A stretch of DNA of 64,000 bases from a virus. Lineage: Duplodnaviria > Caudoviricetes. Position 1 is the first letter of the stretch; every line of letters starts with the position of its first letter. This document shows positions 5,518 through 59,613 of the stretch, piece by piece. The translations under genes were made by a program, and so were the position numbers. The notes under the pieces are model-generated. The model saw only the letters and a list, made by a program, of their open reading frames with translations, did not search any database and was not told the DNA's origin. Where the stretch lies: positions 59,591-123,590 of IMG/VR virus record IMGVR_UViG_3300032030_000024; one strand, 5' to 3'.

Positions 5518-5970
5518 TTACTTCTTATTCTGAATCTGAATCAATGCCAGCTCCCTGTCAAGCAATTTCACCTCTTCGATGGTTTCAAGCTTGTGACTTG
5601 GATGCGAACAGAATGTCTCAATGGCCTTCTCGATCGTCTCAGCAGCCACAAGCCGCTTGTTCACCTTGTAGACGTAGCCAAGATAGTGAGACGCTTGCTC
5701 CTTCGGTTCTTCATTGACTCTTTGCGTTTCATCCTCAATAAATCCCATCTTTAGGCCAGTTCCAACAATATCGTGTTCGATGGCAGTCACACAGATGTCA
5801 TTATCCTGTGTGTTGAGGATATACACGTTGTTGCCGTCCCAGAATCGGAACACCACGACCAAATCCTTCATGTAAGCCTTGTCCGGGAATCCCGGAGGCG
5901 TTACCGACATTCCATCTTTGAAGTCAACAATGTCGCCGACCTCAAACTTATAACTTCCTTTTTCTTTCAT
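5518..5970 (-). CDS. hypothetical protein inserted between recD2 halves
   Basis: 150-aa ORF with KFEVGDIV start motif; AT-richer than flanks. Confidence 0.65.
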   Translation of the reverse strand: MKEKGSYKFEVGDIVDFKDGMSVTPPGFPDKAYMKDLVVVFRFWDGNNVYILNTQDNDICVTAIEHDIVGTGLKMGFIEDETQRVNEEPKEQASHYLGYVYKVNKRLVAAETIEKAIETFCSHPSHKLETIEEVKLLDRELALIQIQNKK

Positions 5971-43847: not shown

Positions 43848-44693
43848 TCAGCCGAACAAGTCCATCTGTATCGCCGACACGTTGCGCTTCTTTGGCGGGG
43901 CAGGGGTGTAATCCTTTTCATATACCCATTTATATCCCCTTGCGTGCTTTATCTTTCCGTTACAGCAACTTATAATCATAGGACGCGGAGCTTTAATACT
44001 TTCAGCTGCATATTTAGATGACGGATATGTTGCTATATAGTTTCCATCCATATCCAGCTGCACAACGTTATAAGCCTTTTCTGTAAACTTGGCACTACGG
44101 GACGCAGCTGAGTCAGCTATCTTCTTCTTTATCCTTTCCTTTGCTACTGCATAAAGAGCATCGTCTTTATACCTCCAAAAGAAACCATAAGCCTTCCTTC
44201 TATTACCAATACAACAGTCACATATATGCCCTGCATCTGCATTTATCGCTTCTGCTGCTATGTGCATAGAGGCGTATTCCGCTATAAACTCCCCGTTGAG
44301 CGTAAATTGCAATACGGCCATATTCTGCTTCTCTTTTATCCTTTGGATTCTTGTCCCGTAATTGCAGTTGTATTTATGTGTACACCATTCAAGATTCTCT
44401 ACACAATTATTCATAGGGTTCTCGTCTAAGTGATTTATTTCCTCTCCATCTTGTGGTGGACGTATAAATGCTGTTGCAACCAAACGTGCAGGAATATATC
44501 TCCTCGCTTTACCATTCTTGCTTAATTCCACTACAATGCGGTCATTGCTTTGCCTATGGTCTATTCTTTGTTTCACCATCTTTCCACCAAACATCTGACC
44601 GTGAACCATTCTTGGTATTGACCAAATATTACCTTTGTTACTTATTTTATATATTCCCTCGTAACCTTCAATATCTTTCCAAATTTCTTCCAT
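43848..44693 (-). mobile_element. NUMOD4-HNH-NUMOD1 homing endonuclease
   Basis: EIWKDIEGYEGIYKISNKG; INHLDENPMNNCVENLEWCTHKYN; two VxQ..L.G.....Y.S..A repeats; AT-rich. Confidence 0.9.
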
Positions 44694-44694
44694 A

Positions 44695-45303
44695 TCAAAA
44701 TAAACTTAGTTGTAGTGTTTGCTGGATTGGTTTCTTGTTTGTAGGTGTAATAAAGATATTTTTGAAAATGTAATACAAGGGCGAAATTGTGATGCTGTTG
44801 CCTGCAAGACGGTACTGCGCACTTTTGGAAATACCACAGTTCTCTATCGTATCGATATCCTTTTCAGAAACTCCTTGAAGTCTGAAAACCTCTCTTGTTG
44901 TAAGCTTACGAATCCTCATGCTTAAAGGACAGATGTCCGCAAGAAAGCGCAGCAGCTCCCCGCGTGACCACGATCCCCTGTTTTCCACGGTGAAGAGAAC
45001 ACCCGTAACAATACCGTAGGCTGCACCGCTCTTGATGCCCCACGACCGTATGATGTCCGCGAGCTGCCGCCGTGCCTCCGGGGAGAACTCAGCTTCCGTG
45101 GTGTCGGTGAAAGCCTCCTGTACACCGTCTGGCATTGCCGTGCCACGGGGATACACGAACCTCGGACAGTCCAGCCGGAGGGCTATGGGGAACGCCACTT
45201 TGAACAGCTTCAGTGCCTCGTTGTCAACTTTGTCCTGTCCGTACTTCCTTCTCAGCGCACGGTAGACGATGCGCACCTGTCTGTGAAAATCATTCTGTCT
45301 CAT
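44695..45303 (-). CDS. C5-cytosine DNA methyltransferase, C-terminal subunit (motifs IX-X) with extra N-terminal domain
   Basis: RIRKLTTREVFRLQG (IX), QYRLAGNSI (X), QLSLF end. Confidence 0.85.
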   Translation of the reverse strand: MRQNDFHRQVRIVYRALRRKYGQDKVDNEALKLFKVAFPIALRLDCPRFVYPRGTAMPDGVQEAFTDTTEAEFSPEARRQLADIIRSWGIKSGAAYGIVTGVLFTVENRGSWSRGELLRFLADICPLSMRIRKLTTREVFRLQGVSEKDIDTIENCGISKSAQYRLAGNSITISPLYYIFKNIFITPTNKKPIQQTLQLSLF

Positions 45304-45308
45304 GCTAT

Positions 45309-45494
45309 TTATTCCGTTTCAAAAGTCAAAAATACCTTTATATGTCCTGCGGTCGTTACGGTCGGGCTTTCGTTCCTTGGATTGGTTATCTGCCACTCTG
45401 CAACACCGCGCTTATCAAATGTGTCGCCCTGAAAGCATCTGATGTCACCGTTGGGCATCCGCTTGAACCGTATGTTGTCGCTCCTTCTGCTCAT
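45309..45494 (-). CDS. TRD-like mini-protein 7 (61 aa)
   Basis: MSRRSDNIRF...NESPTVTTAGHIKVFLTFETE. Confidence 0.7.
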   Translation of the reverse strand: MSRRSDNIRFKRMPNGDIRCFQGDTFDKRGVAEWQITNPRNESPTVTTAGHIKVFLTFETE

Positions 45495-45685
45495 TCCGTA
45501 AAATATATCTCCGCTATCATACAATCTTTTGTTGCGAATGTTGTAATAGTCTGCGCTATCCTTCCAAGCAGTACGCCGTACTTGCCCTTGGAGAACGTAG
45601 CCCCGTGGTCGCCGTGCCTGTGCCTGCGCCGCTTCTCTTCCTGCGTCCTGTCACGCCCTACTGCCCTTGCGTCATGCGGTTTCAT
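45491..45685 (-). CDS. TRD-like mini-protein 6 (64 aa)
   Basis: MKPHDAR...IAQTITTFATKDCMIAEIYFTE. Confidence 0.7.
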   Translation of the reverse strand: MKPHDARAVGRDRTQEEKRRRHRHGDHGATFSKGKYGVLLGRIAQTITTFATKDCMIAEIYFTE

Positions 45686-45827
45686 AGGTCATCATCACTT
45701 TAGGTTCGACACCGCTGTGTGCTCCGCATCCGAGGCACGGGCAAACGCCACTTACATTCAGCACCGTTCCGTTCTGACGGCTGGCATACACATAGCCTTC
45801 CACGAGTATCTTGTCATTCTGTCTCAT
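45672..45827 (-). CDS. TRD-like mini-protein 5 (51 aa, below ORF-track cutoff)
   Basis: MRQNDKILVEGYVYASRQNGTVLNVSGVCPCLGCGAHSGVEPKVMMTYETA. Confidence 0.7.
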   Translation of the reverse strand: MRQNDKILVEGYVYASRQNGTVLNVSGVCPCLGCGAHSGVEPKVMMTYETA

Positions 45828-45975
45828 ACACCACCATCGCCCCCGTTGCGCCCCAGTCGTTCTGATGCAGGTAGTTCGCCACGGACATTTTATACATATT
45901 TGCCTTGATGGTTCTGCACGTCCCGTCCGCTTCGGGGTTACACCCGCGTTTCCAGCTATTCCTACTCTGTCTCAT
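45814..45975 (-). CDS. TRD-like mini-protein 4 (53 aa)
   Basis: MRQSRNSWKRGCNPEADGTCRTIKANMYKMSVANYLHQNDWGATGAMVVYETE. Confidence 0.7.
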   Translation of the reverse strand: MRQSRNSWKRGCNPEADGTCRTIKANMYKMSVANYLHQNDWGATGAMVVYETE

Positions 45976-46135
45976 ATACAATCGCACAACACATTTTTGG
46001 AAAATGGGCAACCGTCAGCATATTCGCCACTCCGATAAGTCCTCCGTAGCTTGCCGTGATGGTCGGTGCAACGCCATCGGCTGTTGTGGGCAGTCCACGC
46101 TTCCGATATGGGGGTGGGAGTTTATTCGGTCTCAT
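45962..46135 (-). CDS. TRD-like mini-protein 3 (57 aa, below ORF-track cutoff)
   Basis: MRPNKLPPPYRKRGLPTTADGVAPTITASYGGLIGVANMLTVAHFPKMCCAIVYETE. Confidence 0.7.
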   Translation of the reverse strand: MRPNKLPPPYRKRGLPTTADGVAPTITASYGGLIGVANMLTVAHFPKMCCAIVYETE

Positions 46136-46271
46136 ATATAGTCATTACGCTTGTGGCGGCACTCGGAGTATCGCCTTGCAGGTCGTAGAATCCCCATCCG
46201 CTGCGCTCGTAGCTGCACTTGATAGTCCTCGCACAGCCGTTTGGCGCGTTAAAAGCCTCACTCCGTCTCAT
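46122..46271 (-). CDS. TRD-like mini-protein 2 (49 aa)
   Basis: MRRSEAFNAPNGCARTIKCSYERSGWGFYDLQGDTPSAATSVMTIYETE. Confidence 0.7.
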   Translation of the reverse strand: MRRSEAFNAPNGCARTIKCSYERSGWGFYDLQGDTPSAATSVMTIYETE

Positions 46272-46416
46272 ATATGAGCAAGCATTTGGGGCAGTTTCCG
46301 TGCCCTGCGGTATGGCAGGGAGAGACACCGTTAACATACACAACCACGCCGTCCTGACTACTGCTGATACTGCCAGCATAGAGCACATTGTCGCTAATCC
46401 TCCCATTCATCATCAT
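46258..46416 (-). CDS. TRD-like mini-protein 1 (52 aa)
   Basis: MMMNGRISDNVLYAGSISSSQDGVVVYVNGVSPCHTAGHGNCPKCLLIYETE. Confidence 0.7.
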   Translation of the reverse strand: MMMNGRISDNVLYAGSISSSQDGVVVYVNGVSPCHTAGHGNCPKCLLIYETE

Positions 46417-47155
46417 CCCATAAAGAGCCTTGCATGGCATCGGCAGAATCCTTGTTCCCGTCCTCCTCCATGCTCTTTTCAGCAAACCGACTAAGCATGG
46501 TATCACTTAAAAAATAACTCTCATCAACATCGTCTTCCAGCACATCGGCAAGGCATTTCTCCAACTTGAACGGAAGCGGGAACTCGTAGCCTTGGTCAAC
46601 ATCACGTCTGATGCTCACAACAAAGACCCGATCACGGTGCTGCGGCACTCCATACTGGGATGAATCGAGCACCTGCCAGTAGTTGTCGTAGCCGTAGCTT
46701 TCCAATATACGTAACCACTCCTGGAAGTCCTTGTAGAATTTCTGCTGGGTCAAAGCCTTTACATTCTCTAAAAGCAAGTACGATGGCCGCTTCTCTGCTA
46801 TGGCCTTCTCACATTCCCATAACAATGAGCTGCGAGTCCCAGAGCCGCGTTTCAGACCAGCCTGTACGCCCGCCGCCGAAATATCAGTACAAGGAAAGGA
46901 ATATGTGAACACGTCAAAGTCGGGCACCTCGCTCCATGATATTTTGCTTATATCTCCAAACTGCTTGTCTTTCGCATTGGGAAAGAGGGCATCGTGAGCT
47001 GTGTTTGCAGCATCGTCTATCTCACTCCAGCCGACCAGTTCGTAATCGAAATCGGGAAAGTTTTCTCGCAGCCTGTTCATCGAGAGGCACTGACTGTCAT
47101 ACCCAGAGAATGCGGTAAAGACTTTAAGCGGATTGTCCTTGTTGTATTCCATCAT
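46394..47155 (-). CDS. C5-cytosine DNA methyltransferase, N-terminal catalytic subunit (motifs I-VIII)
   Basis: FTAFSGYDSQ (I, variant), WSEID, SFPCTD (IV, catalytic PC), LENVK (VI), YGVPQHRDRVF (VIII), L.DVLE.DVDE.Y.LS. Confidence 0.92.
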   Translation of the reverse strand: MMEYNKDNPLKVFTAFSGYDSQCLSMNRLRENFPDFDYELVGWSEIDDAANTAHDALFPNAKDKQFGDISKISWSEVPDFDVFTYSFPCTDISAAGVQAGLKRGSGTRSSLLWECEKAIAEKRPSYLLLENVKALTQQKFYKDFQEWLRILESYGYDNYWQVLDSSQYGVPQHRDRVFVVSIRRDVDQGYEFPLPFKLEKCLADVLEDDVDESYFLSDTMLSRFAEKSMEEDGNKDSADAMQGSLWDDDEWED

Positions 47156-58830: not shown

Positions 58831-59613
58831 ATGGCAAAAGAAGAAAAGGTAATTACCCCAAGTCAGTATTTCGACTTCCTTAAAGGGGCAAAAAAGACTA
58901 TCACGACGGAGGCGCTGAAAAGCTCATACGACGTGTTTCTGAAATTGGCAGAGAAGTATAACAAGCTGGGGCAGGTGGAGTCGATGAAGAAACTCTGCTT
59001 TCTTGCAGATACGCTCATCAAGGAGGAAAAGCTCATTGAGATGGGCATCAACACTTACGTCTATAAGGATACTATTGAGGACTACATCGAGCACGTGGCC
59101 GACAAGACGGTAAAGATTGTGGAGTTGTCGCGCTACATGAGGGAAGTGCCCGATGAACTGGTTGAGACCGTTCAGAAGTCAAAGGAATTGTTCGACGAGT
59201 TCTATGTGGTCTTCACGGACTACACGGGAAAGGAAGAGCGCAAGGTGGAGAAGGAACGCCGCGAAAAAGACCCGATACTCTTTGGCGTGTTCAAGACGAA
59301 CCGCAACGTGGCCGACCGATTCTATTTCCTCGGCGACTGGGTGGACGAATACTGCGACCTGACGCTTGACAAGATGGTTGAGGAGTACAAGGAGAAGAAA
59401 GGCGAGACACCTGTCATTAAGACCGAGGTTCCCAAGACGGGCGAGGAACTGCTGCAAATCTTGAAGACGTATAAGATTGAGGAAAAGAAGGAAGACAGCT
59501 ATATCAGCGCCCCAGAGGGTCAGCAGTTGCCAATCGCAACCTACATCACGTCTGGCTCAGCCGAGAAGAAACCATCGTTCTTTGACAAAATCCGCAGTAT
59601 CTTCAAGAAGTAG
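58831..59613 (+). CDS. conserved hypothetical phage protein
   Basis: KDPILFG...YFLGDWVDEYCDLTLD motif. Confidence 0.7.
   Translation: MAKEEKVITPSQYFDFLKGAKKTITTEALKSSYDVFLKLAEKYNKLGQVESMKKLCFLADTLIKEEKLIEMGINTYVYKDTIEDYIEHVADKTVKIVELSRYMREVPDELVETVQKSKELFDEFYVVFTDYTGKEERKVEKERREKDPILFGVFKTNRNVADRFYFLGDWVDEYCDLTLDKMVEEYKEKKGETPVIKTEVPKTGEELLQILKTYKIEEKKEDSYISAPEGQQLPIATYITSGSAEKKPSFFDKIRSIFKK

Follow-up and report, generated by a model that had tools for sequence, protein, structure and literature searches.

Why would a phage spread one DNA methyltransferase (MTase) over nine genes? The question is posed by a stretch of 64,000 nucleotides (nt; hereafter the window, meaning the whole of this DNA) that makes up positions 59,591 to 123,590 of the 123.6-kb IMG/VR virus record IMGVR_UViG_3300032030_000024 (Duplodnaviria; Caudoviricetes). 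On its minus strand, nine consecutive genes at 47155-44695 encode a single C5-cytosine MTase in pieces, i.e., as two catalytic parts and seven separate mini-ORFs (open reading frames). The explanation that we favor, and consider probable, is that this is a multispecific orphan phage C5-MTase in which the target-recognition domains (TRDs) exist as free, translationally coupled subunits.

Organization of the locus

The N-core subunit, the seven modules (m1 to m7) and the C piece are arranged as follows, with m2 to m6 starting inside the gene before them (an ATG at -11 is one that lies 11 nt before the preceding stop).

46394..47155, minus strand: N-core subunit, 253 amino acids; motifs I-VIII (FSGYD, FPC, ENV, QHRDR); Pfam PF00145.
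46258..46416, minus strand: m1, 52 amino acids from the first of three ATGs and 50 from the third; core SPCHT, tail LLIYETE.
46122..46271, minus strand: m2, 49 amino acids; core ARTIK, tail MTIYETE; ATG at -11, within the m1 Tyr-Glu codons.
45962..46135, minus strand: m3, 57 amino acids; core APTIT, tail AIVYETE; ATG at -11.
45814..45975, minus strand: m4, 53 amino acids; core CRTIK, tail MVVYETE; ATG at -11.
45672..45827, minus strand: m5, 51 amino acids; core CPCLG, tail MMTYETA; ATG at -11.
45491..45685, minus strand: m6, 64 amino acids; basic helical head RTQEEKRRRH, core AQTIT, tail EIYFTE; ATG at -11.
45309..45494, minus strand: m7, 61 amino acids; core SPTVT, tail LTFETE; ATGA overlap with the m6 stop.
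44695..45303, minus strand: C piece, 202 amino acids; a helical N-terminal domain, then motifs IX-X.
44695..44919, minus strand: motif IX-X part of the C piece; motif IX RIRKLTTREVFRLQG, motif X AGNSITI, C-terminal QLSLF.

The N-core matches PF00145 with an expect value (E) of 7e-44 over profile positions 7-219 of 324, which correspond to motifs I-VIII, and the motif set of a C5-MTase, including the S-adenosylmethionine-binding FSGYD, the catalytic FPC, ENV and QHRDR, is readable in its translation. It ends in an acidic tail just past motif VIII, without a TRD, and the solved structures nearest to it are M.MpeI, M.HhaI and M.HaeIII. Motifs IX and X of the enzyme are found on a separate polypeptide: the C piece matches PF00145 at profile positions 273-323 only (24.5 bits, cut-off 22), with motif IX beginning at about amino acid 129.

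The 1.09 kb between N-core and C piece is tiled by the seven co-oriented mini-ORFs. All nine ORFs have their own ATG and stop and lie in changing frames, in contrast to the single polypeptide of the SPR and phi3T enzymes. At the two ends of the array, there is an overlap of 14-20 nt between the m1 start and the N-core stop, and a gap of 5 nt separates the m7 stop from the C piece, which opens with ATGAGACAGAATGA, the same sequence with which m5 opens. A search of the whole window against Rfam returned no intron, riboswitch or recoding element. An earlier reading made from the letters alone (the sequence-only reading) had placed motifs I-VIII and IX-X in separate genes, which the Pfam profile ranges confirm, and had described seven mini-ORFs of 52/49/57/53/51/64/61 amino acids whose quoted tails and cores prove correct to the residue.

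Identity of the mini-genes

If the mini-ORFs are TRDs that have been cut loose, their counterparts should be found in the variable region of intact enzymes. We collected 85 related loci (numbered with the prefix L), 22 of them split in some way, as the window is too, 53 single-chain, and 9 ending before a C piece is visible. The single-chain relatives, whose cores are 56-62% identical, have from one to three segments in tandem in the interval that separates motif VIII from motif IX. One profile was built for each module family of the window and searched against these single-chain relatives and against partly fused C pieces; all seven match within this interval (E from about 1e-6 to 3e-24). The m1 profile matches the variable regions of single-chain L024 and L050, that of m2 matches in L050 and L051, that of m3 in L051, L050 and L039, that of m4 in single-chain L050 (E 9e-15), that of m5 in L050, L085 and L011, that of m6 in L053 (E 3e-24), L051 (E 1.5e-18) and single-chain L080 (E 3e-15), and that of m7 in the fused C piece of L051. 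The m7 family also supplies the last module of the L008 and L016 arrays. By homology, then, the modules are TRDs, in the tandem, non-overlapping arrangement of multispecific phage MTases, the homology being to the window enzyme's own single-chain relatives.

The ends of the segments carry the comparison further. Each single-chain segment closes with a hydrophobic run and (Y/I/V/L)EP, and the last one leads directly into the RIRKLT of motif IX. On these alignments the module tail is the cut half of a strand pair, the uncut form of which survives in the single-chain relatives as '...hhYEP-xx-RIRKLT'. Among themselves, m1 and m5 are 41% identical (E 3e-7), and m2, m3 and m4 have family members in common in other phages, both being resemblances that the sequence-only reading had pointed out. 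Pfam gave no match to any of the seven modules, and the m5 profile found no meaningful sequence match among solved chains.

Selection on the array

The closest counterpart that we examined is L001, which comes from another sequencing run, has an N-core 83% identical to that of the window, and carries the same seven modules in the same order together with two extra ones. Frames, starts and stops of all seven modules are kept between the two loci. The ratio of nonsynonymous to synonymous substitution (dN/dS) pooled over the modules is 0.16 (singly 0.07-0.27: m1, 0.21; m2, 0.13; m3, 0.12; m4, 0.16; m5, 0.27; m6, 0.07; m7, 0.14), as against 2.0 and 1.4 for the other two frames of the same DNA; the N-core and the C piece give 0.15 and 0.20 in the same comparison. 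By this measure, the modules are under purifying selection equal to that on the core. Moreover, the same layout is present in independent assemblies, i.e., L001 and L002, which derive from different runs, and the IMG/VR contigs L005-L010 and L016. As judged by substitution pattern and recurrence, the array is neither a product of decay nor an assembly artefact.

Junctions and translation

The boundary between two modules is itself a conserved feature:

TATGAGACNGARTRA: module junction of 14 nt, in which the next ATG falls within the Tyr-Glu codons at the end of the preceding module and the new frame begins 11 nt ahead of the old stop.

In the window, 5 of the 7 module ATGs stand at -11 within the preceding Tyr-Glu codons. 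Pooling 56 modules from five phages, we found the next ATG at -11 in 39 of 51 junctions and otherwise at -8, -5, -1, +7, +12 or -26; all three stop codons are used, and residue 2 of the module is R or K in 43 of the 56. Within the tails, the Tyr codon is TAT 40 times and TAC twice, compared with 126:97 for the other Tyr codons of the same genes (Fisher p = 3.6e-7), and TATGA is missing where no gene starts at -11 (m6, m7, L001 m9, L008 m3). Because TAC would keep the protein and yet destroy the ATG, it is the start codon itself that is selected. The codon bias thus indicates that separate translation of the modules is under selection.

Bacterial ribosomes can reinitiate at a start codon that lies a few nucleotides upstream of a stop. 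The reading frame shifts by +1 at six consecutive junctions, from N-core/m1 through m5/m6, and by -1, not +1, at m6/m7 and m7/C; varied offsets together with three stop codons fit the pattern of ordinary coupling. Had the junction been a site of programmed frameshifting, a slippery motif would be expected, and there is none; frame changes go both ways, the offsets vary, and the ATG of the new frame is selected. Because that ATG is selected although a frameshift or hop needs none, and because there is no slippery site and some frame changes are -1, we read the junction as a putative termination-reinitiation device.

Variation among relatives

The number of modules varies from 7 to 16 with the layout kept (window, 7; L001, 9; L008, 11; L005, at least 13; L016, 16), and the layout recurs in lineages that retain only about 60% N-core identity. 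In a collection of 5.8 billion proteins, the top 120 homologues of the N-core are almost all N-core-only proteins of 230-300 amino acids. Intermediate forms also occur: N-core fused to a TRD, TRD fused to a C piece, free TRDs beside either, single-chain enzymes and fully split ones. Within this continuum, SPR-like multispecific enzymes stand at the start and the enzyme of the window at the opposite, fully 'atomised' extreme. A scan of IMG/VR with a single sequence found no relatives; an alignment-based scan did. Among the cultured phages inspected after a tblastn search with the N-core, there were single-chain relatives (e.g., Bacillus phage BMBphi gp034) and no split one.

Comparison of the window with L001 shows a clean, junction-to-junction indel of two whole modules (window 45309-45330 vs L001:6820-7130), the crossover having taken place within the junction repeat. 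It thus seems that the junction is a recombination joint for the gain and loss of modules as well.

Other differences among relatives concern single modules. Poly-C and poly-G tracts within them differ in length between near-identical contigs (C8 vs C6, C9 vs C7, G8), and the tract length sets the module in or out of frame at the following sites:

L005:5937 vs L006:6937
L008:3308 vs L010:7265
L016:6741

Such differences may represent either a per-module on/off switch or homopolymer sequencing error. The array of the window has no run of 6 or more, and the corresponding tract in its m3 is interrupted (CCCACCCCC). In L009, positions 5604-5705 hold a short ORF of (Ser-Leu)n repeats (MNKAQPTLSLSLSLSL...) in place of the normal second module of its sister contigs L008 and L010, which suggests a simple-repeat insertion or a rearrangement of the array.

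A structural model of docking

How might a free TRD reach the catalytic body? A three-chain prediction was made with m5 as the partner of the N-core and the C piece, using a separate alignment for each chain that we prepared ourselves. Its score was 0.87, and the best of three controls reached 0.51; of 80 solved complexes 58 reach that mark, as do 2 of 110 mismatched pairs. The contacts of the three runs coincide to at least 93%, and the predicted local distance difference test value (pLDDT) of the partner is at least 74. In the model, tail residues 41-51 of m5 lie against residues 125-134 of the C piece, the strand that enters motif IX, and m5 residues 22-35 (the CPCLG loop region) lie against N-core residues 166-175 (motif VIII) and 198-203. 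The prediction thus supports docking of m5 at the usual TRD site by way of its C-terminal tail.

A third contact involves a part of the C piece that is absent from the single-chain relatives (residues 1-125):

44920..45303, minus strand: N-terminal helical domain of the C piece, amino acids 1-128 (about 125 amino acids); begins with ATGAGACAGAATGA; proposed scaffold that receives the TRD.

Residues 11, 24, 27, 31 and 50-57 of this domain touch m5 in the model. AlphaFold2 confidently predicts a helical bundle with a mean pLDDT of 79 and helices at 3-21, 23-43, 75-87, 94-108 and 114-124. In P0131, P0140, P0125 and P0129, the last TRD is fused in frame ahead of the helical domain, the tail changing from ...KLVEIYET-stop to ...KLVEITFNDTN-M..., and the P0131 and P0140 fusions fix the topology as TRD, helical domain, motif IX. 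Read from their coding sequences, these four fusions are natural cis versions of the proposed contact between TRD and scaffold. We put forward the scaffold role of the domain as a hypothesis.

The domain is confined to fully split enzymes of this kind. An exhaustive profile search of 1.8 billion proteins gave 31 clusters (at 50% identity), all of them C pieces; a word-based homologue search gave 4 proteins, and a scan of 185,579 prokaryote genomes one contig only, from a metagenome-assembled genome. A feature search of the Atlas with the domain returned its own kind only. Foldseek found no match to the C-piece model at E <= 0.001, and the best VIA-align hits (Z 5.8) were generic helical bundles, below the chance level for helical models, so that novelty of the fold is not established.

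A model of the split enzyme

Taken together, these results can be accommodated by a model in which the tandem TRD region of an SPR-like single-chain enzyme was cut at every module boundary into separate genes. A single mRNA would yield nine polypeptides by termination-reinitiation coupling. The N-core and the C piece, with its helical domain and motifs IX-X, would form the catalytic body, as in two-chain M.AquI, and one TRD at a time would complete the enzyme as its small domain. The C-terminal hydrophobic-Tyr-Glu strand of that TRD would pair with the strand of the C piece just before motif IX, its central P-T/C-x loop region would rest against the motif VIII region of the N-core, and the helical domain would support it once docked. 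A cell would then hold a mix of up to seven holoenzymes with different targets, which could pre-methylate phage DNA against many host restriction systems, and the shared junction sequence would permit clean gain, loss and exchange of modules by recombination. The mechanism of coupling, the assembly, the use of one module at a time, the distinct specificities and the anti-restriction role are all things that we infer.

Several points weigh against this model. The seven modules would have to share one docking site. Docking was predicted with m5 alone of the seven modules, from alignments of our own making, and since m5 docks at the normal TRD position, the high score may reflect likeness to solved single-chain C5-MTases. 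Free TRDs also stand beside C pieces that have no helical domain (L019, L085), so that the domain is not strictly required. Finally, Shine-Dalgarno energies are alike for modules, long ORFs and random positions, and thus do not separate coupled from independent initiation.

Alternative explanations

It is possible, but unlikely, that the mini-proteins are made and selected without being equivalent: only some would complete the enzyme, and others would be regulators, competitors for the docking site, or subunits that serve some different protein, e.g., a host MTase or a restriction enzyme. Selection on all seven is compatible with such a division of labor, as are the competition of seven modules for one site and the modelling of m5 alone; and if relatives switch single modules off by changes of homopolymer length, the modules need not act together. 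However, for every family there are homologous TRD segments in intact enzymes, where they function in cis, the docking tail is common to all modules, and in the relatives' loci no other partner gene travels with the array. A far less probable scenario is programmed recoding, in which a +1 frameshift or hop at the 14-nt junction would link the modules, possibly together with the N-core and C piece, to give one SPR-like multispecific polypeptide. The junction is strikingly conserved, six consecutive +1 shifts would suit such an event, and single-chain relatives with several TRDs do exist. But the embedded ATG, unneeded for read-through, is selected (TAT 40:2), the offsets vary (-8, -5, -1, +7, +12), the frame change at m6/m7 and m7/C is -1, the Glu codon before the stop is unable to re-pair in the +1 frame, no slippery site is present, the Rfam search shows no recoding element, and a full-length chain would require eight successive events.

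The direct repeats that flank each cassette, and the clean two-module indel relative to L001, would also be expected of a silent store of TRDs that are moved by recombination at the 14-nt repeats to an expression site, as in antigenic variation of the pilin type. This we regard as very improbable, and slightly more so than recoding: an expression locus apart from the array is lacking, selection acts on the start codons of the supposedly silent cassettes, and, because of the stop at every junction, recombination between junctions cannot join a cassette in frame to either the N-core or the C piece. Least credible of all is a multispecific MTase gene decaying through frameshifts, or an error of assembly. 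Breakage does occur in the family, a stop in L035 splitting an otherwise single-chain gene and modules of L006, L007 and L010 being frameshifted in homopolymer tracts. If the window had this history, however, we would not expect a dN/dS of 0.16 with frames, starts and stops kept at 83% N-core identity, the same architecture in independent assemblies and in lineages at 60% N-core identity, or top N-core homologues that are nearly all N-core-only.

We therefore return to free TRD subunits, for which each prediction of the sequence-only reading that could be examined at the level of sequence (TRD homology, selection on the modules, selected starts and conserved layout) has held. The checks that it proposed came out in the same direction: profiles of all seven families match C5-MTase variable regions, arrays with other numbers of modules exist (7 to 16, with the layout conserved), the split layout is found in independent assemblies and so is no indel artefact, the pooled dN/dS bears out its argument against pseudogene decay, and in the predicted complex of N-subunit, C-subunit and m5 the tail docks before motif IX (0.87 vs 0.51). 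In its broader form, the proposal is of a three-part Type II C5-MTase in which a two-chain body takes up exchangeable free TRD subunits of 50-60 amino acids that dock by a short C-terminal strand, in phage arrays of 7-16, with a dual-coding stop/start junction that couples translation and by which modules can be gained, dropped or, in relatives, turned off singly. We think it somewhat likely that such a natural 'plug-in' specificity system is what the locus encodes.

The C-terminus and the neighboring endonuclease gene

The very C-terminus reads Q-L/M-x-L-F in nearly all enzymes of the family, whether split or single-chain (alignments A2 and A4). In the window it is QLSLF, at 44695-44712 on the minus strand, and Q198 and F202 are nearly invariant. 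We take this ending to equal the bacterial beta sliding-clamp binding motif QL(S/D)LF; through the candidate motif, the methylase may be tethered to the replication clamp.

The C piece is immediately followed by a further gene, the sole match from the window in a blastn search against cultured phages:

43848..44693, minus strand: HNH/NUMOD-type homing endonuclease gene; blastn to phage HNH / I-HmuI-like endonucleases.

From about 0.6, the GC content drops to 0.30-0.43 over this gene and the motif IX-X part (43848-44920). The motif IX-X part is itself AT-rich, with a GC content of 0.30-0.48 compared with 0.58-0.63 just upstream, and was probably imported together with the HNH gene. The last ~20 codons of the HNH gene encode the tail PAPPKKRNVSA.QMDLFG, which is the end of the C piece in L001. 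This arrangement suggests that the endonuclease inserted within the 3' end of the MTase gene, carrying along a foreign motif IX-X segment, and that the former tail of the enzyme ended up fused to the endonuclease. In L001, a different HNH/NUMOD4 gene (L001:4417-5004) is situated directly upstream of the N-core, whose start it overlaps, and not downstream of the C piece. This methylase locus seems to be a recurrent target of homing endonucleases.

Relation to known systems

The multispecific MTases of Bacillus phages (M.SPRI, M.phi3TI, M.rho11sI, M.H2I) combine one core with several tandem, independently acting TRDs of about 40-60 amino acids between motifs VIII and IX, and they are presumed to protect the phage from several host restriction systems. 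The enzyme of the window resembles them in being a phage orphan C5-MTase with one core and several TRDs in the position of the variable region, and among its single-chain relatives we found enzymes with 2-3 tandem TRDs. However, all TRDs of the Bacillus-phage enzymes are in one polypeptide, whereas in the window each has its own gene, the core consists of two chains, and the C piece has an additional helical domain. For the multispecific C5-MTases of temperate Bacillus phages, Trautner et al. 1996 (EMBO J) is cited in PMC12707154.

C5-MTases assembled from separate polypeptides occur in nature as M.AquI and M.EcoHK31I, and in M.AquI the break falls within the variable region, one chain having motifs I-VIII and the second motifs IX-X (PMC3404938). 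The window shares this position of the split. But those enzymes have two chains and one specificity, with half a TRD on each chain of M.AquI, unlike the nine chains of the window, where the multiple TRDs are whole and free and none resides on a core chain. When M.SssI, M.HhaI and related enzymes are split within or close to the variable region, their fragments can likewise reassemble non-covalently into active enzyme (PMC3404938, PMC3439449); in contrast to the window, these are laboratory constructs of two fragments with no free TRD and no choice of module.

A functional analogy, and no more, can be drawn with the HsdS subunit of Type I systems, a separate specificity subunit that gives a common methylase body its target and whose specificity is varied by TRD swaps; a short overlap couples the translation of hsdM and hsdS (PMC3510504). 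The families are unrelated: Type I enzymes use an N6-adenine gamma-class MTase and an S subunit of about 400 amino acids with two TRDs, and there is one S subunit per enzyme and no array of 50-amino-acid modules. The sequence-only reading had been aware of no description of the architecture seen here, and in the literature that we searched there is likewise no description of free TRD genes.

Significance

If the model is correct, the modules, at about 50 amino acids, would be the smallest known autonomous sequence-specific DNA-recognition units for a methyltransferase, and the enzyme would be, within the literature searched, the first natural C5-MTase that derives its specificity from free subunits. 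It has long been an open question how a multispecific MTase brings several TRDs to a single catalytic site, and this could then be addressed with TRDs supplied singly. A fixed core with swappable modules of 50 amino acids would also offer a scaffold for programmable cytosine methylation and for pre-methylating DNA with which to transform restrictive bacteria. For phage biology, the model would account for thousands of 'truncated' methylase genes of 230-300 amino acids and of unannotated 50-amino-acid ORFs in gut and rumen phage contigs, which would then amount to a large, overlooked layer of anti-restriction in phages.

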